In this document: positions 4,369-32,796 of the stretch, piece by piece
How positions within the stretch are numbered: the stretch's first letter is position 1
Layout of the letters: each line of letters opens with the position of its first letter
From: Promethearchaeota archaeon
Lineage (GTDB): Archaea; Asgardarchaeota; Lokiarchaeia; Sigyniarchaeales; SOKP01
Reading direction: 5' to 3'
Assembly: GCA_011364925.1 (NCBI GenBank)
Contig: RDOA01000005.1
Coordinates: 56,898 to 120,897 of the forward strand
DNA length: 64,000 nucleotides
Position numbers and translations under genes: made by a program
Notes under the pieces: model-generated
Databases searched by the model: none
The model's input: the letters and a program-made list of their open reading frames with translations, nothing else
What the model was told of the DNA's origin: nothing

Positions 4369-4641
4369 CTAATATTTTCTTAATTGTTTATCTCGTTGGC
4401 TAACTTGATGACCGTGAATAGCACAACTTATGCAGTAATAATTCTTCTTACTGGGGGTCTGAATAATAGTCCCTTCTTTCTTGAGTTCTGTAAACATTCT
4501 CCCATCGACTAATGAAACTCGTCTTGTGACAGCTTTTGCTTTACTACGAGGTACAAAACGCCCACACTTATAACATTGAACGCGATTATAATGACCCTTG
4601 CTTGAGCCACTTTTTCCGCCACTTCTTCTTTTTTTAGGAAT
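4369..4641 (-). CDS. rps26e: Ribosomal protein eS26 (90 aa; ATT start; missed by ORF track)
   Basis: Manual translation (I)PKKRRSGGKSGSSKGHYNRVQCYKCGRFVPRSKA...YCISCAIH, the S26e signature. Confidence 0.93.
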   Translation of the reverse strand: MPKKRRSGGKSGSSKGHYNRVQCYKCGRFVPRSKAKAVTRRVSLVDGRMFTELKKEGTIIQTPSKKNYYCISCAIHGHQVSQRDKQLRKY

Positions 4642-4765
4642 AAAAATCAGCTTTTTTTTCTGTTTTCTACATCTTAGAATAAGACAAACCTTAAAAAATT
4701 TATTCTTTCACTGTGAAAATTAGCATAAACGTACTCATTTTTAGCTTTATTTCACGAAGAAATGG

Positions 4766-5461
4766 TTAACTTTCATTGATCGCTTCGATTTTACTTAAAG
4801 CTTTAAAAGAATATACTAACCTTTGAATCACTGTCAAAATGAGTAAGCCTGTGAATACTATTGTGAAAATAGGAAAAAACAAAGTGAAAGGCGCTCCATA
4901 CAAAAGATTAGAAATGAAATAGATCCAATACTCAATAATAAAGGCTAACCAAAGAACAATCATTCTTTCAGCTCTTTCCATAAAACCTACGCCTTTCATG
5001 TCAATACCCTCGTTTTCAGCTCTCGCGCGAACATACGAAATCATAATGATTAAAAACATAATCGCAAATCCAATTAGATAATTGAAATAACCCCCTATTA
5101 TTAACCCTAAAACTAGTAAAGCATCAGATAGTCGATCTAGATTCGAATCTAAAAAAGCTCCTGATTTTGAAATATTTTCTGTCCTGCGAGCAACTTCTCC
5201 ATCAAAAACATCAAAGGCTCCTGCCCAGAACATTGTAAATGGGACAATCCACGCTATTTGAAAAGGAAAATGCAACCCTCCGTACGCGAGTAGAACAGCT
5301 ACTACTACAGAACAAAAAAATCCGCAATAAGACAAGAAATTTGGTGTAAATCCATGTTTAATTAGTATTTTGACTGGATAATCAACAAATTTATTTAACA
5401 GTCTTCGCTGGTTATTCCGTTTTGCGTTAGCTTGTTCAGATTTGCTCAAATTTTCAGCCAA
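4766..5461 (-). CDS. CDP-alcohol phosphatidyltransferase (archaetidylinositol-phosphate synthase-like)
   Basis: DVFDGEVAR...GAFLDSNLDRLSD motif; TM helices. Confidence 0.88.
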   Translation of the reverse strand: MAENLSKSEQANAKRNNQRRLLNKFVDYPVKILIKHGFTPNFLSYCGFFCSVVVAVLLAYGGLHFPFQIAWIVPFTMFWAGAFDVFDGEVARRTENISKSGAFLDSNLDRLSDALLVLGLIIGGYFNYLIGFAIMFLIIMISYVRARAENEGIDMKGVGFMERAERMIVLWLAFIIEYWIYFISNLLYGAPFTLFFPIFTIVFTGLLILTVIQRLVYSFKALSKIEAINES

Positions 5462-5513
5462 TATTAGTTTTATCGATAATTAATTTTAAAAGTACTTTAA
5501 AATAAAAAATTTT

Positions 5514-6110
5514 TCATACTAATAATTGCAGATTGATTTTGATTAAACGAATCGTGGAAGATGCTAAATATGAGCGATGTCCTAAGCTCAGATTTGTCAA
5601 ATTCATCTTTTTCAATTCATTATCAATTAGAAAATCACCGCTTTGATCTCCAATGAGAAATAATAAATTATCTTTTGACTTCAATTTCCTAAACTCTTTT
5701 CTATAATCATTACCAGATTCGTTTAACACATATATTTTATAATTTCGTTTAGTAAAATCCCTAATTGCATCAAAAATACTTTTCTCGGAGTATATTACTG
5801 ATTCAAGTGTTTTAGGGTGGTTTTCTGTTTTGGTCTTATTCTTAATCAAGCCTACAAAAGAATCTGTCAGTAAAATTTCATTTTTCGGAAAAGTCTCATT
5901 ATTTAGATAATTAGAATCAAAGATATATGTTCCATAATTATCAAGAAAAATCCAAATTTGAATATCTTTTTCAATTTCTTTTTCATTTAGAATAGCTGAT
6001 AAGACACATCTTGAAATAACATCAAGCCTTCCAGATGACCCCGGGATATCTTTGATATTATACTTACTGATGTTAACAGTTGCTGATTTTAAAAAATAGA
6101 TAATACTCAT
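5514..6110 (-). CDS. trmY: tRNA pseudouridine-54 N1-methyltransferase (SPOUT)
   Basis: GSSGRLDVISRC; FLIGDQ...LSLG SPOUT knot. Confidence 0.8.
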   Translation of the reverse strand: MSIIYFLKSATVNISKYNIKDIPGSSGRLDVISRCVLSAILNEKEIEKDIQIWIFLDNYGTYIFDSNYLNNETFPKNEILLTDSFVGLIKNKTKTENHPKTLESVIYSEKSIFDAIRDFTKRNYKIYVLNESGNDYRKEFRKLKSKDNLLFLIGDQSGDFLIDNELKKMNLTNLSLGHRSYLASSTIRLIKINLQLLV

Positions 6111-6217
6111 TAACTTAAAGCCGATCTAATCGAAATATCTGGTCTATTATGATTAGGAATACCACATTTGGATATATTATTTACTTTTTCGACCTAAAAA
6201 CACTTCTGAAATTCCTT

Positions 6218-6529
6218 TTACTTTACCTTTCTCTTTTTAAAGCGAGCAATTAAATAAAAAGCACTCATCATGATTGTTATCGAAAGTACAATTCCGAGAA
6301 TTCCAGCAATATAATCATTATTAAGCCAAGATAAAATAGGAATCCAAGGTGAAAATAGATTATCGAGCCAATCTTCACCATGATAATCAATTAAGACTCT
6401 TTCTAAACCATCAGGAGCATTAGAAAGAAATCCAATCCTAAATCCTACTGATATTACTAACATTAATGAAGTGATAACGATTAATATAACAATTAATGGC
6501 CATTTATTCCTTTTTAATATGCTTATTAT
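6218..6529 (-). CDS. PDGLE-domain protein (NikN/CbiN-like ECF accessory); probable ATA start overlapping the cbiM stop
   Basis: APDGLE motif; the frame extends 22 codons upstream of the ATG at 6463, adding the first TM helix; GGAGTG lies upstream. Confidence 0.72.
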   Translation of the reverse strand: MISILKRNKWPLIVILIVITSLMLVISVGFRIGFLSNAPDGLERVLIDYHGEDWLDNLFSPWIPILSWLNNDYIAGILGIVLSITIMMSAFYLIARFKKRKVK

Positions 6530-7200
6530 TAGTTCACTCCCAATATTGATTCAGTTGTAATAAGATCAGGTTTGGCTTTATAAATATAGAATATAATTAA
6601 CGCAGATATTATTCCTTCACCAATTCCAATTAAAAGATGCCAAAAAACCATAGCAGGTACAGCGATTGCTATTGGTACTTTACCACCAATCGCAATTTCA
6701 ATGCCGCATATGAAGGAAGCTAATACAATTGCAATATAGGATCCTATCGCAGTTGCGATCGATACTTTTAATTCTTTTTTGAGGGATGTTTTATTTAAAG
6801 CTCTTACTAACAATGTAACCAAATAAAAACCTACGATTCCTCCGATTATTCCCATATTGAAAGCGTTCGCTCCTAGCGCAGTAATGCCACCATCTGCAAA
6901 AAGACTTTGGATTACTAAAATTAGAAATAAAACTATGACTGATGCCCATGGACCAAGGATAACAGCTACTAGAGTGCCTCCTACCAAATGGCCGGATGTT
7001 CCTCCAGGTACAGGATAATTAACAAACTGAAAAGCAAAAATTATTGCAGCTAAAACTCCAATATATGGGATTAACTTTTCAGAATCCTCTTTTTCAAACA
7101 TTTTACCCATTCTAAAATATCCAAGGATCATTACGGTAACGGTAATAACCCATAACACTATCGTAGTAACAGGATCAAGTAACCCGTCAGGTAGATGCAT
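6529..7200 (-). CDS. cbiM: ECF Ni/Co transporter S component CbiM/NikM
   Basis: MHLPDG N-terminus, GTSGHLVGG, DGGITALGAN. Confidence 0.92.
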   Translation of the reverse strand: MHLPDGLLDPVTTIVLWVITVTVMILGYFRMGKMFEKEDSEKLIPYIGVLAAIIFAFQFVNYPVPGGTSGHLVGGTLVAVILGPWASVIVLFLILVIQSLFADGGITALGANAFNMGIIGGIVGFYLVTLLVRALNKTSLKKELKVSIATAIGSYIAIVLASFICGIEIAIGGKVPIAIAVPAMVFWHLLIGIGEGIISALIIFYIYKAKPDLITTESILGVN

Positions 7201-7240
7201 TTTTGATTTTTCTATTATTTATTATCGATTAATTTTTCAG

Positions 7241-7263
7241 TTATGAATAATATTTTATCATAA
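7241..7263. promoter_or_regulatory. Palindrome TTATGA-N11-TCATAA between divergent ECF genes; possible metalloregulator operator
   Basis: 6-bp inverted repeat in the divergent promoter; the region is AT-rich, so chance occurrence is possible. Confidence 0.3.
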
Positions 7264-7329
7264 TTTAGTATTATTTAAAAAAGATATGATAATTTTATAA
7301 TCTAGTATGAAATGACAAATTAGAATGAA

Positions 7330-8205
7330 TTGCGTTTTACACATCAATATACACTATTTTTTGAACGATCTAAAAGAGAACTAAGGAGATATAAAAAATT
7401 GGACATAGAATTACCTTTCAAACACGAAACAGAGAAAAACTTTTTAAGTAAGATACATCCTTTAATTCGAGTCTTTCTTCCTTTTATATTAGTTATCCCG
7501 TTTATTCTATTATATGATGTTTATTTAGTGATCGCTATAACTCTGCTTTCTTTTTTTTTAAATCTCGCATTTAACTTACATCCTTTTAAGATTTTATCAA
7601 AAATAAAAGCACTAATTCCATTCATTCTTCTTATCACCATCTTCATTCCTTTTTATGTTGGAAACACGGTGTTATTCCAATTAAATATTGGAATCACATT
7701 AAACATTTACCAAGAGGGATTAACCCTCGCGTTAACCTTATTTTTTCGTATTTTTGGGGCTGCGTTTATTTTTATGACATTTCTAACCTCACTAACATAT
7801 TCTGAATTTATTGAAGCATTAACTAAACTCAGAGTAGTTCCTCCATTTTTTATTGGAAGTATAGTTATCATGCTTCATTATATTCCAATTTTAGCGATGT
7901 CTAATAAAAAAGTATTAGATGCCCAAGATTTAAGAGGAAAAAACTTTACATCCTATTGGCAAAGAATAAAAGCTCATGCGTTTATTATGGGAAAAAATGT
8001 AGTGCACAATATGGAGAGGAGTGAAAAGTTATATGAAAGTTTAAAATTGAGGGGATTTTCTGGTAGGATTACCTTTTCTTCAAAAAAATTGAAATTAGTG
8101 GACATTCTTATGGTATTACTATTTTTAAGTATCATCTTCGCACTTATTTACTTTATACATATAAAGCAAATACAAATTGAGGTTTTTCAATTATTTATCT
8201 TATAG
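7330..8205 (+). CDS. cbiQ: ECF transmembrane T component CbiQ
   Basis: Multi-TM; AQDLRG and SLKLRGF motifs. Confidence 0.85.
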   Translation: MRFTHQYTLFFERSKRELRRYKKLDIELPFKHETEKNFLSKIHPLIRVFLPFILVIPFILLYDVYLVIAITLLSFFLNLAFNLHPFKILSKIKALIPFILLITIFIPFYVGNTVLFQLNIGITLNIYQEGLTLALTLFFRIFGAAFIFMTFLTSLTYSEFIEALTKLRVVPPFFIGSIVIMLHYIPILAMSNKKVLDAQDLRGKNFTSYWQRIKAHAFIMGKNVVHNMERSEKLYESLKLRGFSGRITFSSKKLKLVDILMVLLFLSIIFALIYFIHIKQIQIEVFQLFIL

Positions 8206-8942
8206 AAGTGGAAAATTTGAGTTTTGAATATAATTCAGATTTTTCCATTGAAAATTTGTCATTCAAAATCGAGGAAAGTTCAATATACGCTCTGACAGGA
8301 AACAATGGCTCTGGAAAAACAACTGTACTTCGGTTATTAGTTGGTTTATTAAAGCCTAAGGAAGGGAAAATTAAAATTTTTGACGAATTCTTAACAAGAA
8401 ACAGAAATCAATTATGGAAATTACGTCAGCAAATTGGATTTCTATTTCAAAATCCCGATGATCAGTTATTTGCTCCAACAATAAGAGAAGATATAGGTTT
8501 TGGAGCAAGGAATCTAGGACTTGAAGAAAGCGAGATTAACGACAGAGTTGAATGGGCGCTAGATGCCGTTAATTTGACCCAATATGGTAATAGTTCGCCA
8601 TATTATTTATCTTGGGGTCAAAAAAAGCGAGCTGCTTTAGCAGGATTATTAGTTATGAGACCTAAATTATTAATATTAGATGAACCCTTTGCAAATCTTG
8701 ATTTCAAATCTATATATAATCATTTGCAAATTTTTAACACTCTTAAAAAAGAGCAGAAAATGACAATTTTATTTACTACTCACAATCTTTTCTTTATAGA
8801 AAATTGGGCAGATAAAATGCTTGTTTTAAATGACGGAAAGGTTATGTTCGAAGGTCTTCCAGAAGAGGGCTTAAAAAATCCCAAAGTCAAAGAAGTATTA
8901 GGTTCTTATACAGAACTTCTAACTCTTATTGATAAAAAATAA
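8190..8942 (+). CDS. cbiO: ECF ATPase CbiO/EcfA (likely ATT start at 8190 or 8193)
   Basis: GNNGSGKTT, FQNPDDQLF, LSWGQKKR, LDEP; the upstream frame adds IIYLIEVENLSF after GAGG. Confidence 0.88.
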   Translation: MIYLIEVENLSFEYNSDFSIENLSFKIEESSIYALTGNNGSGKTTVLRLLVGLLKPKEGKIKIFDEFLTRNRNQLWKLRQQIGFLFQNPDDQLFAPTIREDIGFGARNLGLEESEINDRVEWALDAVNLTQYGNSSPYYLSWGQKKRAALAGLLVMRPKLLILDEPFANLDFKSIYNHLQIFNTLKKEQKMTILFTTHNLFFIENWADKMLVLNDGKVMFEGLPEEGLKNPKVKEVLGSYTELLTLIDKK

Positions 8943-8964
8943 TGATGTGTTCTGACAAAATAGA

Positions 8965-8979
8965 ATAAGTTTTTTTAAC
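8965..8979 (+). promoter_or_regulatory. BRE/TATA-like promoter of the ncRNA
   Basis: AATAAGTTTTTTTAA ~22 nt before 9000; the same AGTTTTTTTAA form precedes tRNA-Phe (~49573) and tRNA-Gly (~34235). Confidence 0.5.
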
Positions 8980-8999
8980 TTCATTTTATATTGTTACAT

Positions 9000-9303
9000 G
9001 GGAAAATGATGATGGAGCATTAGCATATTCGAGGACGCGTATGATTAACCGTGATTACGCGTGCAATGTTATGCAAACATCCTGAATTTATTAATCAACA
9101 ATTTCCTGTAAAAATGGGCTCTTAATCTAGCAATGGTAATACCGTGCAATGAGATTTGAGTCAGTACCCAGGCAGGATACATGATTATGTCCCGAAAAGG
9201 CATAGAAATTAACGCCTAGCACGAGAGAACTTATTTGATTAATGGTATACCCATTGAGTGATAAATTTGCGTTAGTGCACTAGGCAACAATATATGCTGA
9301 TTT
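9000..9303 (+). ncRNA. Three-hairpin H/ACA guide RNA with terminal C/D boxes
   Basis: Hairpins 9023-9074, 9104-9177 and 9214-9285, each followed by ACA (9077, 9179, 9287); ATGATGA at 9006 and CTGA at 9297; pocket 1 is complementary to 23S UUGC-U-A-CCUCGA. Confidence 0.75.
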
Positions 9304-9328
9304 AACGAATAATAGATTAAGACACTAA

Positions 9329-9799
9329 TTATAATAGGCTTATTGTATCCGAATTAAAAAGTTCTTTTAATTCTTTATTCATTTCTCCCGTTTCTTCTTG
9401 GAGATACCTGTCTAAAACAGTAGAAATCTTTTTAGAATATCTTTTCATTAAAGCCCTCACAAGCCCTATTTGGATGTTTTTATCTGTAGCAATACATAAT
9501 ACACCCTTTCCAACCTTGAGGGAGAAGATCATACCTTTAAAATATTCTGTGATTTGCAAATGAATATTTCCATATCCAAGTATGTATCCTTGTTCTTCTC
9601 CAGCAGTAAAAACAGCGCCTCCAATCGCTCCAATCTTTTCTACAGAGAGGTCATCTTCGTTTTTCAAGATGAACTTTGATTCACTCATGATGGTTATTCC
9701 CGTATCGTCTATAATTATAGCATATTTTAAGCCTGGAGTGCTATTAATAATTTCTTTTAAAAGATTTTTTAAAATACGCTCATCTTGGGAATAACTCAA
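9329..9799 (-). CDS. Roadblock/LC7 (LAMTOR-like) protein
   Basis: YAIIIDDTGITI...IGAIGGAVF...GVLCIATD..IQIGLVR roadblock pattern. Confidence 0.82.
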   Translation of the reverse strand: MSYSQDERILKNLLKEIINSTPGLKYAIIIDDTGITIMSESKFILKNEDDLSVEKIGAIGGAVFTAGEEQGYILGYGNIHLQITEYFKGMIFSLKVGKGVLCIATDKNIQIGLVRALMKRYSKKISTVLDRYLQEETGEMNKELKELFNSDTISLL

Positions 9800-9971
9800 T
9801 TATTATCACCTGTTATTTTTCAACCTAATAGGGCTAATATTCAATGTATCTTATTATTTTAATAAGAAATTATTTAAAGTAAACTGGAGTTGCTTATTTA
9901 CTTAATAATGAAATAAAATTATAGCTTTAAAAACTTAATTCTCCTAAATTAATTTTATGTTCCATAACAGA

Positions 9972-10346
9972 TTAAAATAATTCTTGCGCTCTAATTAGCG
10001 TTTTTAAGGGTTTTACTCCACTTTTATTATAATTTGACTTTTCTAATAGAATAAATAGTCTGATCCTCTTCGCTTTATCAATATCAAATTTCAATTGAAC
10101 CAAGTTTGGATCATTAAGTAAGTCTTTATTTTCTTTGTTTTTAGTAACTGCCCATAGTGCTAATTTGTTTTCATGAATCCAAAGTCGTTTTGAGATGTCT
10201 GACCCTATTGGAAATCCATTTTTGTCCGTTATCACCCCCGCAACAAAGTTTGGGAAGTAATTTTTGATTTGTTTTAAAAAATAATTGACCTCAATTTGAT
10301 TAATAAGCCTGTTATTCTCTCGTTTCATATAATCATACCTACACAA
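9972..10346 (-). CDS. Divergent roadblock-like protein
   Basis: FVAGVITDKNGFPIGS motif. Confidence 0.55.
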   Translation of the reverse strand: MCRYDYMKRENNRLINQIEVNYFLKQIKNYFPNFVAGVITDKNGFPIGSDISKRLWIHENKLALWAVTKNKENKDLLNDPNLVQLKFDIDKAKRIRLFILLEKSNYNKSGVKPLKTLIRAQELF

Positions 10347-10483
10347 ATCAATTGATCTATAAAATTAATTTTAGTAAAAAGTCATTAATTAGTATGATAT
10401 CGTGATATTATTCCCTTGTAAATAACGTACATTTAAGATCGAATAACCTTCCCTTGAAAAAGTAGGAGTTTGTATAGAGTTAA

Positions 10484-11440
10484 TTACTTTTTATTGATTC
10501 CAAGATCTAGATTCTCAATTAATTCTTGAAATCTATTTCGGACAGTAACCTCTGTCACTTGGGACACTTTAGCAATTATTCTTTGAGTTCTTCGCTCATC
10601 AGTCAAGATGCTTGCAGCGTAGATCGCCGCCGCACATACTCCAGTTGGTCCCCGACCTGAAGTTAATCCTCTTATTTCAGCCATTTTAATAACTTTTTTA
10701 GCCATTTTATGGCATTGTGTAGAAAGTCCTAACTCAGATACAAACCGAGTTAGAAAATCCATAGGTTTGGTTGGATTTAGATTTAATTCTAACTCTTTAG
10801 AGATAAATCTGTAGGACCTTCCAATTTCCTTTTTGTTAACTCGAGCAACATCAGCAATTTCATTTAAAGTGCGAGGTACTTTATACATTCTGCATGCTGC
10901 ATACAAACTTGCTGCTGCAACACCTTCAATACTCCGCCCCCTTATTAAATGCGCTTCAACAGCATCTCTATAAATTTTTGCAGAACATTCGCGAAGATTT
11001 TTTTGAAGATCGAGATTTGAAGCCATTCGATCTAATTCACTTAAAGCAAAGGTTAGATTTCTTTCTGTAGCGTCTGACACTCTAATTCTCGATTGCCATT
11101 TTCTTAAACGGTAAATTTGACCTCTAATTTTCGCCGAAATTTCTTTACCAAAAATATCCCTATTTTTCCAGTCAATCATTGTACTGAGTCCTTTGTCATG
11201 AATCATATATGTCATAGGCGCTCCAGTTCTAGTTCGTTTCTTTTTTTGATCAGAGTCAAATGCACGCCATTCTGGACCCTGATCTATATGTTTTTCACTG
11301 TGAACTAAACCACATTTTTCACAGACTAACAAACCTCTGTTTTCATCAAATAATATATTTTGACCACACTCACTACATATTTCATGACTACGGTCAGTAT
11401 TCTCTTCTAAGAAAGCATTACTTTGATTCCAACTTGAAAT
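10484..11440 (-). CDS. tfb: Transcription initiation factor IIB (318 aa; ATT start)
   Basis: GPEWRAF, cyclin repeats; the complete Zn ribbon CSEC...CEKC needs 36 codons upstream of the ORF-track start. Confidence 0.95.
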
Positions 11441-11491
11441 AGCTTACTCCCTCTTAAAGATTGGTTCTTTAATAGAAAGGTTTCATTGATT

Positions 11492-11740: not shown

Positions 11741-11874
11741 GCAACGACCCTAACTATTGTTTAAATTATGAAATAATAAATCTATGGTAGATATTTAAAT
11801 ATAACTTTTTTTAAAAAAGGAGGTTAAGGATGAAGTCTTTTTGTAAGATGTGCTCTATTAAACTTAGAATAAAT

Positions 11875-12978: not shown

Positions 12979-15046
12979 TTAGAATCTTACCTGTTTTAGA
13001 ATTCTTAATATAATTTGAACCTACAATTAAACTGCCTAATCCAATCAAACTTTCTTCTTGTTTATTAAATATTAAAACAATATCCTTTGGTACGAGATTT
13101 TGACTGAAATCAATAATTCCTGGGCGAAATAAAGTGTTTCCATTGATGTGTTCCCCGTCAAATACAATAATATTCTTCTTTTCTTCGAATGGTAATAACC
13201 TATTTGCGCCGTCAAGACTTAATTCAATTTGACCCGATTTATTATTGAAATTACCTAGTTTCTTTCGATTTTTTTGATCTATTATTTCAATCTGATCATT
13301 ATTTTTATTTTTCCATGTCTTTATCCCATTGAGAAATATATTGTTTCCCGATTTTGGACCAAATTGATAATCAATTATTTTAATAAACTTACGAGTCCAA
13401 GTTTTCAAGAAGTTTTTATTTTCAGGAATATTAAGTTCAAGTCCGGCGGACTCTTTTAAAGACTTTATTTTCTTCTCGAAAGACAGCAAAGAATCCTTAT
13501 TTGTAAGATTTCCTTCAATATCACTAAAATAAAATTTATGGTTTAATTGCCTCTTAGCTTCGTCTACTATTTCTAAGTATCCTGAGTCCTTTAAGTGACA
13601 CAATACAGGAATTCTATCGTCATACTTCTTCAATAAGGAAATGAGCATATTTGAGGCAATCTCTATTTCTTCCTTATCCCATTCTCCTGTCACAGAGATA
13701 TCATAAGAATTAACTGGATAAATATTTTCTAGTTGTCTTGGGATTGCTCCCAGTGGCGAAGTTATAATAATTTCTTGAAAATCTGGAAAATCTGGAAATT
13801 TTCTTATTACACTTTGAAATTTCCTATGGGATTTCGATTCGGAGTAAGGCTTTTTTGCTGAACACGGTAAAAGTATAATTAATTTCGTCCATACTTCCGG
13901 TGTAAAGTTCTTTATAACGCGATCCCGGAATTCTTGGAAATCTGGTCTGCAATACGAAGAGAGCCCAAAACTTTTAATAACTTTACTTGTTTGAGTAATT
14001 GGGGTCTCAAATCTCAATACATTAAAATATTGCTTATCAAGTATTCTTAAAGTAGAGATAATATTTACATCATCAAAGGTAGATTTTTCAATAAAACCTC
14101 TAAAATCTTCAATCCTCATGTATAATTTAATTTTATGCATATATGTGTATGCTGAAATAATATTGTGAAGAGTTAATTGTTCCAACTTTTCAGATGAATA
14201 TTTGTCAGTAAGATTGTATTTTAAACTTCGCTTACAAATAGCGCACGAACAAGGAAAATATTTTATTTTGTAAATTGGAAGTAAATATTCGATAGTATCG
14301 TAGAAATTTTCAGTTGATAAATACAATAAATAAGAACAATCTATAAGATCAATCCCAAGGTAGATTAAAATCGGATAATATTTCGGGATAATTCTGCCAG
14401 AAGCCATTAAAACTAGGTTATTATCGAGTTCTTTTTTGATTTTAAATATCACGCTTAATATTTGCCTAAAATTACTAAAGTTGTCAAAAAGATCTACTAA
14501 ATTAAGTATTCTCACATTCTCATTATTCTTAATTAAAGGAATGTAAAGATCAAATAACTCATAATATTCATAGATCTTAATAGATAATCCAAAATCTAAA
14601 CCATTATATTTTTTTAGAATTTCATTAGATTCACTTATAAAATTATTAATTTCTTCTATAGCAAATTCCTTGTTAATTGCCGTTGTCGCAATATTGAATG
14701 GGATAGAAGGTATAATGTTATCTTCTTGAAAGATATCAACATTAGAAGCTAATTTTTCCTTAAAAAACTCCATTGAACCATTATGTGTGTATATGAAACC
14801 AGTTTGTTTGAATTTGTCTCTTAAAAATTCTATCTTTAAATAAAAATCTTTTAAAATTAGGAATATTTCGTGATCTTCAAATTCCTCAAGAAAGTTAACA
14901 TTATTCATTAAACTTTTCTTCATCGGAACAATAATATTCGGCGTCGATATAAACTTTTTCGTCTCTTTTGAACATACTATTCTTCCGATTCTTGAGAACC
15001 CTACGCTTTTTGTAAGTAATTCAAAAAAGTAATTCATGGTTTTCAA
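12959..15046 (-). CDS. arcS: Archaeosine synthase alpha subunit (TgtA2/ArcS; TGT + PUA)
   Basis: LLPCSAKKPYSESKSH, TSPLGAIPR, YDISVTGEW; C-terminal PUA domain. Confidence 0.85.
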   Translation of the reverse strand: MKTMNYFFELLTKSVGFSRIGRIVCSKETKKFISTPNIIVPMKKSLMNNVNFLEEFEDHEIFLILKDFYLKIEFLRDKFKQTGFIYTHNGSMEFFKEKLASNVDIFQEDNIIPSIPFNIATTAINKEFAIEEINNFISESNEILKKYNGLDFGLSIKIYEYYELFDLYIPLIKNNENVRILNLVDLFDNFSNFRQILSVIFKIKKELDNNLVLMASGRIIPKYYPILIYLGIDLIDCSYLLYLSTENFYDTIEYLLPIYKIKYFPCSCAICKRSLKYNLTDKYSSEKLEQLTLHNIISAYTYMHKIKLYMRIEDFRGFIEKSTFDDVNIISTLRILDKQYFNVLRFETPITQTSKVIKSFGLSSYCRPDFQEFRDRVIKNFTPEVWTKLIILLPCSAKKPYSESKSHRKFQSVIRKFPDFPDFQEIIITSPLGAIPRQLENIYPVNSYDISVTGEWDKEEIEIASNMLISLLKKYDDRIPVLCHLKDSGYLEIVDEAKRQLNHKFYFSDIEGNLTNKDSLLSFEKKIKSLKESAGLELNIPENKNFLKTWTRKFIKIIDYQFGPKSGNNIFLNGIKTWKNKNNDQIEIIDQKNRKKLGNFNNKSGQIELSLDGANRLLPFEEKKNIIVFDGEHINGNTLFRPGIIDFSQNLVPKDIVLIFNKQEESLIGLGSLIVGSNYIKNSKTGKILNVYEKI

Positions 15047-15142: not shown

Positions 15143-15730
15143 TTATTCTTCGATTTTGTAAATTCCTCGCTTATACATTTCAAAAAGTATTTTAGCTTCG
15201 TGAATTGCATCATCAACTGCTCGATGTTTTTCTGCATAATTAGTATTAGGAAAAATATTATCCCAAGCTTCTTGCATTTTGGGATTCTTGTACCCTCCTT
15301 TGGGATACATAATCTTACATGCTTCTTTTGCCACTGCCATAATGTCAGGGATATCTTTTTTTATAACAAAACCTCTCGATTCCATAAAGTCAAAATCGAA
15401 GGATGTGTTGTAAGCAGTTAACGAATAAAAATTCAATATTTCTTGTATGTCTTCTTTCACATTACTAAGATTAGGAGCTTTCTGAATTTCCTCAAACTTT
15501 AGATCGGAATTGTAAAATATCCATGCGTTTTTGTGATATTCTCCAAATTGTGATTCCTTTACTGGTGAATCGAATAAAATTTTAGTTTTCCCAGTTCTTA
15601 AGTCAAGTTCAACGATTGCTATCTCAATAATTAATCCGTTTTCTGGTTTTAAATCTGTCGTTTCAATATCAATTATAGCAATTTTATCTTGGGATATGCT
15701 TTTGGCAAAATCAGTGATATCTCGAAATAT
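15143..15730 (-). CDS. DEDDh 3'-5' exonuclease (195 aa; ATA start)
   Basis: The extended frame contains ExoI IDIETT, ExoII AYNTSFD and ExoIII HRAVDDA. Confidence 0.85.
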   Translation of the reverse strand: MFRDITDFAKSISQDKIAIIDIETTDLKPENGLIIEIAIVELDLRTGKTKILFDSPVKESQFGEYHKNAWIFYNSDLKFEEIQKAPNLSNVKEDIQEILNFYSLTAYNTSFDFDFMESRGFVIKKDIPDIMAVAKEACKIMYPKGGYKNPKMQEAWDNIFPNTNYAEKHRAVDDAIHEAKILFEMYKRGIYKIEE

Positions 15731-19403: not shown

Positions 19404-20342
19404 TTATCTTAATTTTGGGAGAATTTGCTCTCCAAATATTTTCAAGTTGTCAATAGATCCCATAAAAGTAAATACTTTTAAACCCCTATTGATCAACTCT
19501 TGCATCGCCTCAATGTGAGCTTCTGGTGTTGATGGAGAACTTTCGACGAACTTTTTTAATTCTTTTAATGTTTTATTACCTCTCATTTTTAACCTCATAG
19601 CACGTCTGGAAATATCTTCTTTTGTAGGATTAAGCCATAGTGTATATCCTGCAGCAATTCGAACCTCATTAGCGTCTCTCCCTAACTCTTTACATCTTTC
19701 AGATATTAGAAGTCTCCGATCCTCTAAGGCATCTAATGAAGGATCAAAAACACAATGAATAATATCAGCATAACGCGAAGCAATTTTAATAGTTAAATTG
19801 CCAAAAACTCCCGTCATTATTGGTACTTCTTTCTGAACTGGAAGTGGACTATTTAAAGTATTTTCAACAGAAAAAACATTCCCTTTATAAGTAGTATACT
19901 CATTACGCAACATTGAATGAACAATAGCTAATGTGTCTTCAAAACCTTGTATTCTTTCCTTAGCTGGAGGAAACCTCCCGTAAAATCCATTAAATTCAGC
20001 TTGATGCCACCCTGCACCAAGACCCATTATTAATCTTCCATTACTTATAATATCAACACTCGTTGCTATTTTTGCTAGTAATGTTGGTGCTCTATAACCA
20101 TAACATGATACCAACGGTCCTAACCGGATCTTCTTAGTGACTGCTGCAAGACCCGCTAGTAAACTCCAACATTCCAGAGGATGATTTTCCTTACCCGAGG
20201 GATTCATCATATTCATGAAATGATCAGTTGTTGTAAACAGATCAAGACCAATATCTTCAGCTGTTAAACAGATTTTTTTCATACTTTCGAAATTAAGACC
20301 CTCAGAAGGAACATGATAACCAAACCAAATATCATCATTCAT
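19404..20342 (-). CDS. LLM-class (probably F420-dependent) oxidoreductase
   Basis: DHF, LECW, ISNGRLIMGLGAGW. Confidence 0.85.
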   Translation of the reverse strand: MNDDIWFGYHVPSEGLNFESMKKICLTAEDIGLDLFTTTDHFMNMMNPSGKENHPLECWSLLAGLAAVTKKIRLGPLVSCYGYRAPTLLAKIATSVDIISNGRLIMGLGAGWHQAEFNGFYGRFPPAKERIQGFEDTLAIVHSMLRNEYTTYKGNVFSVENTLNSPLPVQKEVPIMTGVFGNLTIKIASRYADIIHCVFDPSLDALEDRRLLISERCKELGRDANEVRIAAGYTLWLNPTKEDISRRAMRLKMRGNKTLKELKKFVESSPSTPEAHIEAMQELINRGLKVFTFMGSIDNLKIFGEQILPKLR

Positions 20343-20388
20343 TTGATAACCCCATATTAAGTTGATACTTGTTTTTATTTTTAATTCA

Positions 20389-20418
20389 AGGTGTCCGTTC
20401 AGATTATCTAGGACACCT
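20389..20418. promoter_or_regulatory. Inverted repeat AGGTGTCC-N14-GGACACCT upstream of the LLM gene
   Basis: Perfect 8-bp GC-rich arms within an AT-rich spacer. Confidence 0.4.
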
Positions 20419-20663
20419 AGATTATTAATTAATAATAATTTTATTATTTGATTTCTAATTTAAATTAAATTCGCTAATTTATTATAAGTAAAAACATCAT
20501 GCAATAGTAAAAATATGAAAGAAAATATAGAACCTAAATTTCCTTTTCAATTTCCATTAATTTATAAAACTTTTTATACATACTAAAAACCATTTTTTTC
20601 TACATTTGTGTCCAACAAAGTAGGTAATAAGGTTTTTAAAATAGTGATAACAATATTGAATTT

Positions 20664-25333: not shown

Positions 25334-25371
25334 TTTGTATCTTTTTCTGAAGTCTAATTTTAAGATCTCAA

Positions 25372-25791: not shown

Positions 25792-25851
25792 AACAATAAA
25801 ACCTTAAAAACAACTTATTGTTTTAAAAGAAATAAAATTTGTTTAAAAACT

Positions 25852-26103
25852 CTACCCAATGTTTAAGACGAAATTAACTAGAGTCCAAATTAGCTGAATA
25901 ACATACGAGATAACGCCTAATATTAAAATTCCAACAGCACAAATCTTAAAAACAAGAAAATAATCTTTCCTACTCGGTCTATTTGCGATTTTAAATATTC
26001 TTCTAGTATTCTGAAAAAAGACTCCTATACGCTCGTAAAGGGATAGTTTCTTCCCCTTGTCGTATCTCTCGTATTTCTCATACTTTGGGTAACTATTAGA
26101 CAC
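25852..26103 (-). CDS. secE: Protein translocase SecE/Sec61-gamma
   Basis: RIFKIANRPSRKDY followed by a TM helix; downstream of ftsY. Confidence 0.88.
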   Translation of the reverse strand: MSNSYPKYEKYERYDKGKKLSLYERIGVFFQNTRRIFKIANRPSRKDYFLVFKICAVGILILGVISYVIQLIWTLVNFVLNIG

Positions 26104-26158
26104 AATTAAAGTAAAAATAAATATTTAAAAAATTTAACTGTTATTCCCAATTTCTTCT

Positions 26159-27073: not shown

Positions 27074-27114
27074 TTGAATTAAAAATCAATGTATTCTTAA
27101 AAAAAGGATTCAAA

Positions 27115-27531
27115 CTATTGTTGAGACATTCTATTTTGTAGAATTTGATTCATACTCTGAAGGTTTAAATCTAAGTTGTATATTCTCTCTTGGAGAAATT
27201 TTAACTGAGTATTATGCTGTTCGATAAGTTTTGTAACGAATTCAATTGCTTCCTCAACAGTTTTTTCGATAACCGTGTCGTTTTTAACATACACAAGGAC
27301 TTTTTTAGTCTCTTTCAAAGTTGCCTTAATGTTGACTAAACCTCCAATCGGGATAAGAATTTCATCATTATCGTTAACCCCATCCTTAAGATTATCTAAG
27401 GTTAGTTTTGTCGTGTATAAATTCCCAAGAGACGCATTTATTATTTCAAATTGACCTTGAAATATATCTCGTTGTTCCTTAATATACCGATATTGACTTA
27501 ATTGTACCTCTAAACTCTGATCATTTTCCAT
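27115..27531 (-). CDS. pfdA: Prefoldin alpha subunit
   Basis: Coiled coils around EILIPIGG; synteny. Confidence 0.88.
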   Translation of the reverse strand: MENDQSLEVQLSQYRYIKEQRDIFQGQFEIINASLGNLYTTKLTLDNLKDGVNDNDEILIPIGGLVNIKATLKETKKVLVYVKNDTVIEKTVEEAIEFVTKLIEQHNTQLKFLQERIYNLDLNLQSMNQILQNRMSQQ

Positions 27532-27561
27532 ATAAAATCAATTAATGCTGTAATTGTATTT

Positions 27562-27789
27562 TTATTTAGACAATTCTCTTATTAAATAATCTTGACTCTC
27601 TTCCGGAGTTATTTCTTTTATTTCTTGGATATTTATCTGTCTTCTAAGAATCCCAATTGATGTGATTTGACTTAAAGCTTTTTCTAAAGCATCTTTTTCT
27701 TTTAAAGCTCGAACTTCTTTACGAAATAAATATCTTCTATGTTTTTTTTTATAGGTGCCAATAATCCTATAGATTTTAATTTCTGACAT
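27562..27789 (-). CDS. rplX: Ribosomal protein eL20 (LX/L18Ae)
   Basis: IYRIIG...FRKEVRALKEKDALEK; synteny. Confidence 0.88.
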   Translation of the reverse strand: MSEIKIYRIIGTYKKKHRRYLFRKEVRALKEKDALEKALSQITSIGILRRQINIQEIKEITPEESQDYLIRELSK

Positions 27790-27895
27790 GATTTAACCTT
27801 TCAAATCTATCAACGAAGTTAACCAAGATAATTATTTTAAAAATATTAAATTTTGCTTTTTGTTGAACAGTAATATAACGCTGATAATCTCAGCC

Positions 27896-28576
27896 CTATA
27901 ACATCAATACGTTAGTTAAACGCATCATCTCTGGACCAGTGCATTCATATCCAAATATACCACTCTGATCATTAACTATTGCACCTGAGGAGAGATACGG
28001 AATTCCTCTGTTAACGGTGGATACATCGGTTTCTTTGACTTTTAGAATATCCGAAATAATATCTATTTCTTCGTCAGTGGTAAGAGGATGAACTAGACAC
28101 CCGTTATTATTTGTCAACGATATAGAACCGGGAAGATAATTATTAACAAACTCGTAAATTACCGTCTCAACACATAAAGTATTTTCAATTTGGTCTTTAT
28201 AATCCTGTAAAAGAGTAGAAATTATAGCGCCTTTATCGTTACATAATATTAGATTTCCAAAAGCATTGTCTAGCGATTCAAGAATCCCAATTTGATAACC
28301 ACTATTTATTTCATTCGAATAATTCTTCAAACGTTGAATTTCTTCTTCCCTTGTAATGTAGGGAACAATTGTCCCATATTTATTACTTGCGGTATATACT
28401 CCAATTAAATTTGAATTGTTAATTGAGATAGGATAAAAGGGAACTTCAAATACGCTTTTAATTTTTTCAATAACAGGTTTAAGTAGCGTAGCTGGATACA
28501 AACCAAACAAATTATTAACTGCTAAGTACACTCCGACAGAATTTTTACCAAATATTTGGTACTTTAAAATTGTCAT
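27896..28576 (-). CDS. eif6: Translation initiation factor aIF-6
   Basis: GNLILCNDKGA, STVNRG, TGPE. Confidence 0.93.
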   Translation of the reverse strand: MTILKYQIFGKNSVGVYLAVNNLFGLYPATLLKPVIEKIKSVFEVPFYPISINNSNLIGVYTASNKYGTIVPYITREEEIQRLKNYSNEINSGYQIGILESLDNAFGNLILCNDKGAIISTLLQDYKDQIENTLCVETVIYEFVNNYLPGSISLTNNNGCLVHPLTTDEEIDIISDILKVKETDVSTVNRGIPYLSSGAIVNDQSGIFGYECTGPEMMRLTNVLML

Positions 28577-28712
28577 TTAATGTATTGGATAGACTTCTAA
28601 ACCATAAATATTTTATTAAAACGAATAGGATAAGTCATTTTCACATTCAGAGAACTGTTTTATCATAATTTTGAGTTAATCTTTATTAATAAAGAATACT
28701 CAATTATTATCT

Positions 28713-30962
28713 ATGATAAATTGGGTTATTGCCTTTTTCTATTTTCTAGAAGAACTTGGTTTATTAAGAATTGAGACCATGGTTACGATAAACCTTCCAA
28801 TGTTGTTAATATTCAGGGGACTATACAGCATTACATATTATCTTAATTACAACAAGCGATTTGGCAGCGATCCTGAAAATAGATTGTCGTTATTTACTAA
28901 AAAGGAGACCAGTTACTTTTTTCTAAAACAAATAATAATAATTCTTTTTGGAACTATCCATTTGACTTTTACACTGTTTATTAGCTTTTATTCTTTAATG
29001 ATGACTGGAAGATACATTACTAGCTTTGCTGAAACGATTAAAAATCGGCTACTAAAGACTCTAGGAAAACTCATAACATTTTTCGCTCCACTCCTAGGGA
29101 TAGTTTGGTACGCCCTTGTAGGATCAGATCTCTACTCCATTGCTGCTATTGGAGTAAGTACCATAGCTTTTTTACACTATGGCTCAAAAATTTCTCTCCT
29201 TTCTTTGAAAGAAATCTTGGAAAAATATAATAAAAGGCGAATCGAGAAAATCCCAAAAATTATTCAATATATACTATTAATCTTCTTAATTGCTTTCCCA
29301 ACGACTGTAATAATTGGAACTGGTTTGTATAAACCTCAGGAGAAACAAACATTTATGGTTCCGATGCGAGATGGAGTTCGATTAGCGACTGACATTTATT
29401 TTGCACCTGGATCTTTTGGAACACCTCGTCCGGTAATTCTAGTTCGAACACCCTATGGTAAATCTGGTTGGGCATATGATCTATATTCCTCACTTTACTT
29501 AATTCAAGATTATCATTTAGTCATTCAAGATCTTAGAGGTACTCACGATTCTGAGGGTGGTGAAGATTATCTACTTTTCATAAATTCCTATAAGGACGGT
29601 GTTGACACAATTTACTGGATATTAAATCAGAGTTGGTCGAACGGCAAGATAGCTAGCGCAGGTGTTTCTGCTTTATGTATTAACCAGTACTATTACGCTG
29701 GAATGGGTCCAAGTGGATTATTAGCTCAACAATTATGGTTTGGAACACCAGAATTGTTTGATCACGCAATCTTTCAAGGATCTTACCATAAGTCTTCAGT
29801 TGAAACTTGGATAAAATCGACCAGTCCATCCAATTGGCAATACCAAGTGGATACAATATTTTCAAAGACAATCCCTAAAAATGAAATTCTTTACAACTCA
29901 ACATCATTATCCTATCCTTTAGGACCTCGTTATTCCAAAGTTAATGTTTATGGAATTCATGTTGGTGGATGGTATGACCACTTTTTACAAGGCACGATAG
30001 ATGGTTTTATTGGATACGACGATAATGGAACTTCTAGAGCTCAAGGACATCAAAAACTCGTAATGGGTCCTTGGACTCATGGGAGCGTGTATGGTGGGCA
30101 ACAAGGAGAATTAATCTATCCCGAAAATTCTAACGGATTTAATTTATTGCTCGATTGGGACATGGAAGTATTTGACGCTGCTTTCTTTGGAACTCCAGCG
30201 GATTGGACTGGTGGAAGGGTCGCCTATTATTTAATGGGCGATGTCGATGTCAATTCAAATAAATGGAACTACTGGAGATATGCTTACGATTGGCCTTTAG
30301 ATTATGTAGATGATAAATGGTATTTCACGTTTGATGGTGGATTAAGTAATAACTCTGCTGGTGCTGAAAATAAGAGTTTCTCCTTTCTGTTCGATCCTCG
30401 AAACCCTGTTCCAAACTTGGGAGGACAAAACCAACCCTTCGATTTAGCGGGTCCCATGGATCAATCATCGATAGAAAGCCGATCTGATGTACTGATCTTC
30501 GAAACCCCTGTATTGACTGAAGACATCGAAACAGTGGGAAGAATATGGGGTAATTTATTTGTTACTTCAAATTGTACTGATACAGACTTCACAATTAAGT
30601 TAACTGATGTATATCCTGATGGGCGTTCAATGTTAATAACCGATGGTTCACTCACAGTTCGATACAGATATAACTACACATCAGAAGTTTTTATGTCAGG
30701 GAATCAAACAGACATTTATGAACTTTTAATTGATTGTTGGTCAACTGCTTATGTTTTTGGTGCGGGGCATAGAATAAGAGTAGCTATTTCAAGCTCAAAT
30801 TATCCTCGCTATGCTATAAATCCTAACACGGGAGCACCATTAGCTCGCGAATATTTAGACGCTGATATTGCGAACAATACTCTCTTTGTAGGTCCAGGAT
30901 ATAATTCTTGCATTATTCTACCAAGATTAGTAAATATGAGTAGTACTCATAAATTTTATTAA
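28713..30962 (+). CDS. Membrane-anchored CocE/NonD family hydrolase
   Basis: MRDGVRLATD, RTPYGK, QDLRG, GGWYD, GPWTH; N-terminal TM helices. Confidence 0.85.
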   Translation: MINWVIAFFYFLEELGLLRIETMVTINLPMLLIFRGLYSITYYLNYNKRFGSDPENRLSLFTKKETSYFFLKQIIIILFGTIHLTFTLFISFYSLMMTGRYITSFAETIKNRLLKTLGKLITFFAPLLGIVWYALVGSDLYSIAAIGVSTIAFLHYGSKISLLSLKEILEKYNKRRIEKIPKIIQYILLIFLIAFPTTVIIGTGLYKPQEKQTFMVPMRDGVRLATDIYFAPGSFGTPRPVILVRTPYGKSGWAYDLYSSLYLIQDYHLVIQDLRGTHDSEGGEDYLLFINSYKDGVDTIYWILNQSWSNGKIASAGVSALCINQYYYAGMGPSGLLAQQLWFGTPELFDHAIFQGSYHKSSVETWIKSTSPSNWQYQVDTIFSKTIPKNEILYNSTSLSYPLGPRYSKVNVYGIHVGGWYDHFLQGTIDGFIGYDDNGTSRAQGHQKLVMGPWTHGSVYGGQQGELIYPENSNGFNLLLDWDMEVFDAAFFGTPADWTGGRVAYYLMGDVDVNSNKWNYWRYAYDWPLDYVDDKWYFTFDGGLSNNSAGAENKSFSFLFDPRNPVPNLGGQNQPFDLAGPMDQSSIESRSDVLIFETPVLTEDIETVGRIWGNLFVTSNCTDTDFTIKLTDVYPDGRSMLITDGSLTVRYRYNYTSEVFMSGNQTDIYELLIDCWSTAYVFGAGHRIRVAISSSNYPRYAINPNTGAPLAREYLDADIANNTLFVGPGYNSCIILPRLVNMSSTHKFY

Positions 30963-30972
30963 CATTTTTTTT

Positions 30973-31209
30973 CTATTTTAACATTTCGAGGAATTCATTT
31001 TCAGTTATGAAGGTTACGCCTAATTTACGCGCTTTAATAGAGTCCTTGGATTCATCTTTTTTATTATTAGTAACTAAATACCACAAGTCGGTAGATACAT
31101 GTTCTCTAACGATTCCTCCTTTCTCAGTTACTCTTTTCTTCGCTTCTTCTTTTCCCATTGTTTTTAAATCTGACGGAAAGAAGAATTTTATTAAAGATAG
31201 ATCTGCTAT
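30973..31209 (-). CDS. Stand-alone BRCT-domain protein (ligase-type; likely ATA start)
   Basis: EEAKKRVTEKGG...KARKLGVTFITENEFLEML; the first BRCT strand lies in 17 upstream codons after GGTGA. Confidence 0.75.
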   Translation of the reverse strand: MADLSLIKFFFPSDLKTMGKEEAKKRVTEKGGIVREHVSTDLWYLVTNNKKDESKDSIKARKLGVTFITENEFLEMLK

Positions 31210-31337
31210 TTTTTATCACCTTCTAACTGTGATAGGATCAACAACTATTTCTAATACGAAGAAAAAGATTTAACTTTTAAAACTAATGGACCAAAGGAAA
31301 TTTATAATTTTTAAAATGAGAAGAATTTACTAAGGTT

Positions 31338-31802
31338 TCATTCTGCTAAATAGCATACTACTAAACCATCGATATTCTTTGTTGCTCTTATTTTAATCTT
31401 TCTTGGTGGTTTTTGAATTCCACGGGCCCATATCGCTTCATTAACCTCTTGCGAAATAACTAATGACTCTGGTTTGAAATGGCGCTCCATGAATTCTTTT
31501 AGGTATCTAACTCCCTTTTTTGCCCATTTATTTCGTGGACCTCGTCTTGCTTTTGCGAGAGGAACAAGATATATACGCTCATCTATGATTTCTTCTTTAG
31601 GGGCTTCTTCCTCTTCTACTTCTTTAAATTCTTCGAGTTCTTCCTCAAAAATTTCGCTAACTTCTTCTTGTTCAGATATTTCATCTAAACTGAATTCTTC
31701 GATTTCTTCAATTTTGTCTTCTTCTTCCTCAATATCCTCAGCCTCAACTAGCTCCTCTTCTAAATCATCCAAACTTATTTCTTTCGATTTCTTCTTTGCC
31801 AT
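31338..31802 (-). CDS. rpl31e: Ribosomal protein eL31 with acidic N-terminal extension
   Basis: ERIYLVPL...VNEAIWARGIQKPPRKI. Confidence 0.93.
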   Translation of the reverse strand: MAKKKSKEISLDDLEEELVEAEDIEEEEDKIEEIEEFSLDEISEQEEVSEIFEEELEEFKEVEEEEAPKEEIIDERIYLVPLAKARRGPRNKWAKKGVRYLKEFMERHFKPESLVISQEVNEAIWARGIQKPPRKIKIRATKNIDGLVVCYLAE

Positions 31803-31826
31803 TTTACATCAATTTAAATATATTAT

Positions 31827-31988
31827 TTAATCTCTCTTTAATCTTGTATTTCGCCATTCTCTTCTAGAATAAGGACTATCTCTTACTTTTCCACCTGTTT
31901 TCCTAATAATCCAATTAGGTAGTGAACGGCTTTGATTCATCTTTTTTGCCCTTCTTAACTTCGAGGGTAAATCTTTGTTACGCGCCAT
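31827..31988 (-). CDS. rpl39e: Ribosomal protein eL39 (53 aa; missed by ORF track)
   Basis: MARNKDLPSKLRRAKKMNQSRSLPNWIIRKT...RREWRNTRLK. Confidence 0.93.
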   Translation of the reverse strand: MARNKDLPSKLRRAKKMNQSRSLPNWIIRKTGGKVRDSPYSRREWRNTRLKRD

Positions 31989-32003
31989 TATTTCACATCT
32001 ATC

Positions 32004-32342
32004 TTATTTTTTAATATTAAATTCCTTTTTACTTCCGGCTGTTATTCTCTCTAGAATCTTTTTAAATTCTTTATCTGGTAATGGAGTAGCTCCGCGAAGT
32101 CTTCCTGATTGAAAGAGTTGTATTAGTTGAAGTTCGATTTGTTCTGCGAATTGAGGTTTTACTATTCTAATATTTTCTAATCTCTGACGTCCTTCTTGAC
32201 TTAGTATCTTTCTCATAATTTGATACTTTTGTTTATTGTATTGCTGTTCTTGTTGTTCAGCTATTTGTTGTTGAAGTGCATGTTGTTGAAGCTGCTCTAG
32301 TTTTTTTCTTCTAATGTTTTCTAATTCTTCTTCATCACTCAA
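32004..32342 (-). CDS. PDCD5-family DNA-binding protein
   Basis: DEELENIRRKKL; ILSQEGRQRLENIRIVKP. Confidence 0.9.
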   Translation of the reverse strand: MSDEEELENIRRKKLEQLQQHALQQQIAEQQEQQYNKQKYQIMRKILSQEGRQRLENIRIVKPQFAEQIELQLIQLFQSGRLRGATPLPDKEFKKILERITAGSKKEFNIKK

Positions 32343-32373
32343 ACTTGAAAACCTTAACTTATTTACTTTTGAA

Positions 32374-32796
32374 TTATTTTCTAAGAATACTATAAGCAGT
32401 TCTCTCTAACAGACTTGTTCCTTCTGGAGAAACAACCCTACCATCTCTTTCTTGCTTTACTATTAAATTTGCATCTTCCAGTTGTTGTAATGCCACTCGT
32501 ATAATTTTTCCACTTCCTCTAGCACTGTGATGGAGACCTGGCCCATTCTTGTTCTTTCCACCATAATATTTTCGAAGTTTATTAACTCCAATTGGACCAA
32601 ATTTCTTTACTTTTCTTAATATTGATGCACACCTAACATACCAGAAATTTTCGTGATCGATCGGAGCTAATTCCTTAAAAAACGCAGTCTTCCAAAACTG
32701 ACTTCCTTCAGGTGGCTTAATCTCGGGGAATTCTCGTAATTTTTCTGCAATTGTGTTGATCAGCTTCTCTGGTTCAACGATATATATGCTAATAAT
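32374..32796 (-). CDS. rps19e: Ribosomal protein eS19 (start probably ATT at 32796 or 32793)
   Basis: WYVRCASILRK, GSGKIIRVALQQLE. Confidence 0.93.
   Translation of the reverse strand: MISIYIVEPEKLINTIAEKLREFPEIKPPEGSQFWKTAFFKELAPIDHENFWYVRCASILRKVKKFGPIGVNKLRKYYGGKNKNGPGLHHSARGSGKIIRVALQQLEDANLIVKQERDGRVVSPEGTSLLERTAYSILRK

Follow-up and report, generated by a model that had tools for sequence, protein, structure and literature searches.

Probable translation starts at ATT, ATA and ATC codons in conserved genes of a Promethearchaeota genome

Seven genes of the window probably open at ATT or ATA

The stretch of DNA analyzed here (the window; 64,000 nucleotides of Promethearchaeota archaeon contig RDOA01000005.1) is part of contig C70 of a host genome of 3.9 Mb with a GC content of 33%, and its first half contains seven genes that appear to be translated from ATT or ATA. 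Below, ATH stands for ATT, ATA or ATC, and NTG for ATG, GTG or TTG. The seven starts had been proposed in a first-pass annotation, and all seven codons were found in place, each opening an intact frame with a Pfam match (SD, Shine–Dalgarno motif):

4369..4641, minus strand: eS26 gene, 90 aa; start ATT 4641-4639; weak SD-like GCTGAT at 4651-4646; match to Pfam PF01283 beginning with the first residue
6218..6526, minus strand: PDGLE-domain membrane protein, 102 aa; start ATA 6526; SD-like GGGAGTGA at 6541-6534
8193..8942, plus strand: cbiO/ECF ATPase, 249 aa; start ATT 8193 (8190 possible); SD GAGGT at 8179-8183
10484..11440, minus strand: TFB gene, 318 aa; start ATT 11440; SD-like GAGGGAG at 11453-11447; TAA in frame, two codons before the start
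15143..15730, minus strand: DEDDh exonuclease, 195 aa; start ATA 15730; SD GAGGAG at 15742-15737
30973..31209, minus strand: BRCT-domain protein, 78 aa; start ATA 31209; SD AGGTGAT at 31221-31215; closely preceded by two stops in frame
32374..32793, minus strand: eS19 gene, 139 aa; start ATT 32793; SD-like GGTG at 32805-32802

For three genes the proposal had left two neighboring codons open. Alignment to relatives with ATG placed the start of eS19 at 32793 and that of PDGLE at 6526, and the conserved column of cbiO is 8193.

Conserved N-terminal sequence that precedes every in-frame NTG, with a stop as its boundary, was found in TFB, eS26, DEDDh and BRCT, as well as in the aIF1 gene described below, and in part in cbiO, eS19 and PDGLE. 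No NTG occurs in frame upstream of the start in TFB, DEDDh, BRCT or eS26, and the next one lies 36, 90, 17 and 48 codons downstream, respectively. The first downstream TTG of TFB sits within the zinc ribbon, the next NTG of DEDDh is beyond the catalytic DxE motif, and the Pfam match of BRCT begins at residue 7, with the first ATG at residue 18. The claim that conserved residues precede the first NTG thus stands for these three proteins but is weak for cbiO on the window alone: GTG and TTG occur there at +5 and +8 codons, and starting at either would cost few residues. In PDGLE the next ATG is 21 codons in, within a hydrophobic helix (the Pfam match is below cut-off). eS19 has an in-frame TTG without an SD 14 codons upstream (32835), which is absent from its two closest relatives (theirs is at -31). 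The SD of eS26 is weak yet conserved. The genome-wide model presented below finds no ATH start at 33–64 kb of the window. With 7 of ∼68 window genes affected, the high frequency noted at first pass (about 7 of ∼65) is borne out, and it matches the genome-wide 7–10%.

Start columns in related genomes

The start codons of homologues, a comparison that the first-pass annotation had suggested, support ATH starts across the family of this genome (termed f1; its sister family is f2). Because the relatives are kin and not independent, all counts over them overstate certainty. In several genes ATH and ATG alternate at the same column. The eS26 column contains ATT in 25 relatives, ATC in 2, ATA in 3, ATG in 7, CTG in 1 and GTT in 1, and four switches between ATG and non-ATG could be mapped on the TFB tree. 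Of 29 family genomes, 26 have ATG at the eS19 column; the host and two close relatives have ATT together with a gained GGTG. The BRCT column reads ATA (2), ATC (1) and ATG (2), and that of PDGLE is ATG (locus L066) or ATA (L067) in the nearest relatives. Homologues of uL15, an ATH-start gene outside the window, carry ATG at the aligned column, and two DEDDh homologues have TTG and ATT.

Two other window genes retain ATT. In cbiO, both the ATT column and the SD (GGAGGT/GGGGGT) are kept in most of the ∼30 relatives shown, and the in-frame GTG at +5 is unconserved, with GTT or GTA at that Val in most relatives. These columns settle the starts of cbiO, eS19 and PDGLE, which were weaker on the window alone. 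Among 80 relatives' loci the TFB start is ATT in 64, ATC in 3, ATA in 1 and ATG in none, and an in-frame stop lies nearer than any NTG in 38 of the 80. In a count of 73 loci, ATT occupies the position in 69, while internal Ile columns peak at 71% for one codon; as only loci with Ile at position 1 could enter this count, the lack of ATG rests on the 80-locus count. G was found in 28 of 28 fourfold columns with T as the major base, whereas the start is never ATG.

The cbiO and TFB starts read the same, letter for letter, on contig X2, which comes from an independent study. Together with the recurrence of ATH codons in dozens of separately assembled genomes, this argues that these codons are not sequencing errors. 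Automated calling of start columns misread conserved leaders, and its results were discarded.

The closest TFB relatives (75–93% identity) are mostly labelled Promethearchaeota, e.g. Loki_b32 and AMARA_1S, which identifies the host as an Asgard archaeon of the Loki type. Several others are labelled Hodarchaeota, Thorarchaeota or Odinarchaeota, which misfits the tree, and contig DATKTW010000174.1 (locus L067) is labelled an actinobacterium, yet its TFB is 92% identical to that of the window.

Frequency of ATH starts in the host genome

Start positions in ∼3,300 open reading frames (ORFs) were fitted with a mixture model, all 61 sense codons being equal at the outset. The estimated shares were 76% ATG, 11% TTG, 3.6% ATT, 3.2% GTG, 2.4% ATA, 0.9% ATC, 0.7% ACG and 0.3% CTG, with the rest together at 1.3%. 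When a class for ORFs lacking a real start was added, ATH accounted for 6.9–7.1% (bootstrap 6.2–8.0) and twelve common decoy codons for 0.2%, which corresponds to about 220–250 ATH-start genes in the host. Random destruction of 8–15% of starts yielded only 0–0.4% ATH, and an 8% ATH spike-in was recovered as 5%; since the model underestimates spike-ins, the 7% figure is conservative. Subsamples of 200 kb, a size at which the model is underpowered, gave 0–6%. A variant of the model that included a weight matrix for the upstream sequence absorbed ATG and collapsed, and likelihoods of restricted codon sets proved not to be comparable.

Two further signals accompany the predicted starts. Among ORFs whose first 25 codons contain no NTG, ATH makes up 42 of the 104 in-frame codons located 4–8 nt after an SD of 5 or more nt, compared with 13.9% without an SD (p ∼1e-10), and decoy codons in the same ORFs showed no enrichment behind an SD. 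The anti-SD used was the archaeal consensus, as this end of the host 16S is unassembled. Raw counts of SD distance show only a faint ATH excess. An SD is present at ∼46% of ATH starts, 46% of TTG starts and 29% of ATG starts. The first-pass annotation had described the selection of AUN codons as relaxed and "SD-driven"; relaxed selection and SD enrichment are supported genome-wide, but more than half of the ATH starts lack the motif. The second signal is Ser after the start codon, in 25% of predicted ATH starts, 18% of ATG starts and 7% of internal Ile codons (p 4e-7), a bias that lends indirect support to Met as the residue initiated at ATH. ATT, ATA and ATC stand at 52:35:14 among starts and 49:32:19 in Ile usage, so the third start base appears to be nearly free.

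The confident ATH-start genes span unrelated functions and include RadA, PheT, uS8, uL15, eS8 and aIF1. No clear link of ATH starts to gene overlap or unusual folding was seen (n = 51). The large ribosomal protein operon (contig C75:2323-11820) has almost only ATG starts, the exceptions being uL15 (ATA) and probably uS8 (ATA). In the window, a 351-codon frame at 19404-20459 (minus strand) has CTG 20402 as its best-guess start, with low confidence.

Initiation machinery of the host

Internal ATT, ATA and ATC codons align to Ile in 44–47% and to Met in at most 4% of cases (ATA: Ile 44%, Met 4%), so the genetic code is unchanged. The first-pass annotation had suggested altered fidelity of the initiator tRNA (tRNAi) or of aIF1; an altered tRNAi is not supported. 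The tRNAi gene (contig C44, minus strand, ∼13344-13480 from the reversed end) is canonical in its A1, three G-C pairs and CAU anticodon (base modifications are invisible in sequence). A long insert, probably one or more introns, follows its anticodon arm, the T-arm region is atypical, and ARAGORN misses the gene. Many tRNAs of the host contain introns, and ARAGORN also misses a tRNA-like gene in the window (63228-63360, minus strand) with inserts that are probably introns, which a spurious 102-aa ORF overlaps.

The host encodes aIF1, two aIF1A (contigs C53:29122 and C101:16468) and aIF2 alpha, beta and gamma. aIF1 looks intact: it aligns over its length with Methanocaldococcus (M.) jannaschii aIF1 and keeps the basic loop. 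Its gene and that of uS9 have features that may bear on start selection:

Contig C86:10208-10537 (locus L004:1426-1755), plus strand: aIF1 gene; start ATT behind conserved AGGTTGTGA
Locus L296:1501-1881 (contig C59), minus strand: uS9 gene; C-terminal tail ends Phe-Arg, where archaea and eukaryotes usually have Tyr-Arg

The AGGTTGTGA motif doubles as an in-frame TTG-TGA start-stop. Among 44 family members the aIF1 start is ATT in 43 and ATC in 1, and elsewhere in the class, other families use ATA or TTG; some relatives have a second aIF1 paralogue, which starts with ATT too. In vitro, Sulfolobus aIF1 discriminates against AUU (PMC4705826). The tail of uS9 contacts the anticodon loop of tRNAi and affects start fidelity (PMC7005279, PMC3643588, PMC6344880). 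It ends in FR in 120 of the 120 nearest homologues (hits ranked by likeness to the query), and in distant representatives it reads YR in 104, KR in 4 and FR in none; YR also occurs in three other Asgard samples.

The single aIF2-gamma gene (contig C53, minus strand, ∼19150-19120) has a 29-nt insert that splits the P-loop Lys codon. Its removal restores GHVDHGKTTLV, and its flanks fold into a stem resembling that of tRNA-type introns. This intron was set aside as a cause of ATH starts, as ATT is near universal in TFB of the relatives.

Other lineages and consequences for annotation

Samples of 0.2–0.6 Mb from ten genomes, all Asgard, served for comparison. Six other Asgard families, sampled and pooled, gave 0.9–1.3% ATH (ATA only), and sister family f2 gave 1.7–3.0%. 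GC-matched Asgard samples were at 1.7–2.7%, compared with 4.5–8.4% in host subsamples of equal size, and two other f1 genomes were at 2.8–4.1% on 347 ORFs, with wide error. The other Asgard samples also contain about 1% each of CTG and ACG starts, and clear single ATH-start cases occur outside f1. Near-cognate starts therefore look Asgard-wide, with ATH ∼2–5 times higher in the host: the trait, first ascribed to "this lineage", is strongest here but extends beyond it (1–3% ATH in other Asgard samples). In three Asgard samples (G038, G006 and G012; L196-L215, L246-L255), all small, TTG makes up ∼30–39% of starts.

In model bacteria ATG, GTG and TTG comprise 99.95% of annotated starts and non-NTG codons ∼0.05%, and in E. 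coli AUH initiation reaches 1–2% of the AUG level (bioRxiv 10.1101/063800). The host ATH rate is ∼100 times the annotated bacterial rate, a model estimate being compared with annotation. A review of archaeal initiation names only AUG, GUG and UUG as starts (PMC7531240). Our literature search for non-AUG starts in Asgard archaea, outside which most subscription journals lay, found no report.

Models restricted to ATG, GTG and TTG are blind to the ATH class. Standard gene finders would cut gene fronts where the starts lie at ATH, and ab initio calls truncate these genes. In agreement with the systematic mis-annotation expected at first pass, the first CxxC of the zinc knuckle is missing from 75 of 115 aIF1 homologues in the database. 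Several NCBI aIF1 entries are full length, with Met placed at the ATT, so homology-guided annotation catches some ATH genes. In Prodigal-type annotation hundreds of proteins per genome would lose a zinc finger, a catalytic motif or a signal peptide to truncation, and the proteomes used in studies of eukaryote origins would be biased as a result.

Interpretation and alternative explanations

The reading that we favor, with a probability of roughly 0.8, is that 7–10% of host genes are translated from AUU, AUA or AUC by ordinary Met-tRNAi, through an SD-aided tolerance at the third position and looser discrimination by aIF1. The small subunit would be positioned, often via SD pairing 4–8 nt upstream; the normal Met-tRNAi (CAU) would pair with A and U, the third-position mismatch would be tolerated in the P site, and N-terminal Met would result, presumably at lower efficiency. 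Discrimination by aIF1 would be set looser than in model prokaryotes, and since the gene of aIF1 has a conserved AUU start of its own, feedback probably steadies the stringency. With ATH starts tolerated, ATG-to-ATH mutations could come and go by drift in many genes, frequently together with an SD that compensates, and a few genes (TFB, aIF1, cbiO) may hold AUU under selection, probably limiting or coupling expression. The labile genes fit tolerance and drift, and the conserved ATT of TFB, which is never ATG, fits selection for limited or aIF1-coupled expression. Relaxed selection and a regulatory layer, put forward at first pass as two readings, would then both apply, the latter to TFB and aIF1 and the former to eS26, eS19 and BRCT, which swap freely.

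Several points weigh against this reading. The case is built on DNA sequence, from which the need for ATH starts, their frequency, their SD and second-residue signatures, their conservation, the canonical tRNAi arm and the presence of the factors were read. A strict homology test gives a floor of ∼3–4% ATH (it misses genes with a nearby downstream NTG), only 75–147 genes are individually confident, and their list includes some spurious ORFs. The lineage contrast comes from small samples, and the other f1 members are low (2.8–4.1%), with wide error. As the model covered Asgard genomes only, the rates annotated for bacteria and archaea may be too low. The assembly lacks the 3′ half of the host 16S rRNA (anti-SD, helix 31 and helix 44).

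An artefact, whether from sequencing error, a pseudogene, another canonical start, RNA editing, AUG-creating splicing or AUA read as Met, is very improbable and already contradicted at the DNA level. It could appeal to the in-frame NTG codons near the starts of cbiO and eS19, to the in-frame GTG often found within SD motifs and to at least one tRNA-type intron in a host protein gene, but the same codons recur across dozens of assemblies and independent contigs, and a stop separates the GTG from the ATT in about half of the TFB genes. Internal ATH aligns to Ile, with Met at no more than 4%, no single editing chemistry could convert U, A and C to G, and single-base swaps between ATG and ATH require no splicing. 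We also think it unlikely that the host is nothing special and that several percent of ATH starts are common in AT-rich archaea but hidden by gene callers. Such codons are included in table 11, hidden cases were found by proteomics in Deinococcus (PMC2830850), and other Asgard samples show 1–3% ATH, ∼1% each of CTG and ACG and clear single cases; against this stand the GC-matched contrast (1.7–2.7% versus 4.5–8.4%) and the ∼0.05% of non-NTG codons among annotated starts of model bacteria (bioRxiv 10.1101/063800).

A deliberate regulatory layer, with all ATH genes forming an aIF1-controlled regulon switched by start-codon stringency, would account for the ATT kept family-wide in TFB (never ATG), aIF1 and cbiO and for the many core genes affected, and non-AUG mRNAs of E. 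coli are condition-sensitive (PMC5499595). However, eS26, eS19, BRCT, uL15 and PDGLE flip between ATG and ATH among close relatives, the listed genes are functionally unrelated and the codon shares follow Ile usage, which makes such a regulon improbable. Still more doubtful is the fixed P-site change in uS9, from penultimate Tyr to Phe, as the cause of the higher ATH rate of the family. FR is family-wide, with YR or KR elsewhere, and the tail touches the anticodon loop of tRNAi, but one clade with one conservative change affords no independent contrast, and the ranking of the homologues followed their similarity to the query. The tail mutants that have been published, Tyr-to-Phe not among them, reduced UUG/GUG use, and some ATH starts occur in YR-bearing Asgards too; we therefore regard uS9 as a speculative candidate lead. 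Beyond the favored tolerance of AUH by ordinary Met-tRNAi, we advance only tentatively, and consider it less likely than not to be correct, a scheme in which the third start base is largely free and ATH forms a fourth routine class (up to 10% of genes), its stringency set by the uS9 tail and an AUU-gated aIF1 loop; this stringency would then tune, genome-wide, the expression of conserved genes such as TFB.

Comparison with known systems

Animal mitochondria use AUA and AUU as starts, read internal AUA as Met via a modified tRNA and have leaderless mRNAs. The host resembles them in using AUH codons as routine starts, but internal ATH stands for Ile here (ATA aligns to Ile in 44% and to Met in 4%), starts draw on all three codons and an SD is present in many mRNAs. 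Relaxed initiation through an altered tRNAi, of the mycoplasma kind, would show as loss of the three G-C pairs of the anticodon stem or as a changed anticodon; the host tRNAi retains A1, the three pairs and CAU. The high use of UUG and GUG in archaea (PMC7531240) is similar in being relaxed relative to eukaryotes and in pairing weaker codons with stronger SD motifs, whereas in the host the third position is relaxed too.

Further parallels are single genes: infC (IF3) and pcnB of E. coli start with AUU, and in Deinococcus dnaA starts with ATC and rpsL with CTG (PMC4705826, PMC5499595, PMC2830850). As in those cases, near-cognate AUH codons lie behind an SD in conserved essential genes. AUH coincides with the ATG column of orthologues in eS19, eS26, BRCT, PDGLE and uL15, and the SD stands at initiation spacing (40% versus 14% ATH with and without a strong SD). 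As in infC, the gene of a fidelity factor, here aIF1, itself starts with AUU. The difference is that a handful of genes is involved there and ∼220–250 here, many of which swap with ATG, under archaeal aIF1/aIF1A/aIF2. AUH starts as such are known (infC, pcnB, Deinococcus dnaA, mitochondria); what is new is the scale and the evolution in two classes.

Both infC and eIF1 autoregulate through suboptimal starts (PMC4705826), eIF1 by a poor AUG context (PMC4705826; Ivanov 2010, as cited in PMC6237735). The orthologous aIF1 likewise has a conserved suboptimal start and could feed back negatively on stringency; eukaryotes keep AUG in a weak context, whereas here the codon itself is AUU or AUA and feedback would act through it. 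If the tentative scheme is true, an eIF1-like stringency circuit exists in archaeal relatives of eukaryotes, with the AUU start of aIF1 and the uS9 tail as candidate elements. In summary, the start-codon rule would change for a large and widespread Asgard family, and the finding bears on the evolution of strict AUG selection, as the aIF1/aIF1A/aIF2 core, which enforces AUG in eukaryotes, appears to accept AUH routinely here.

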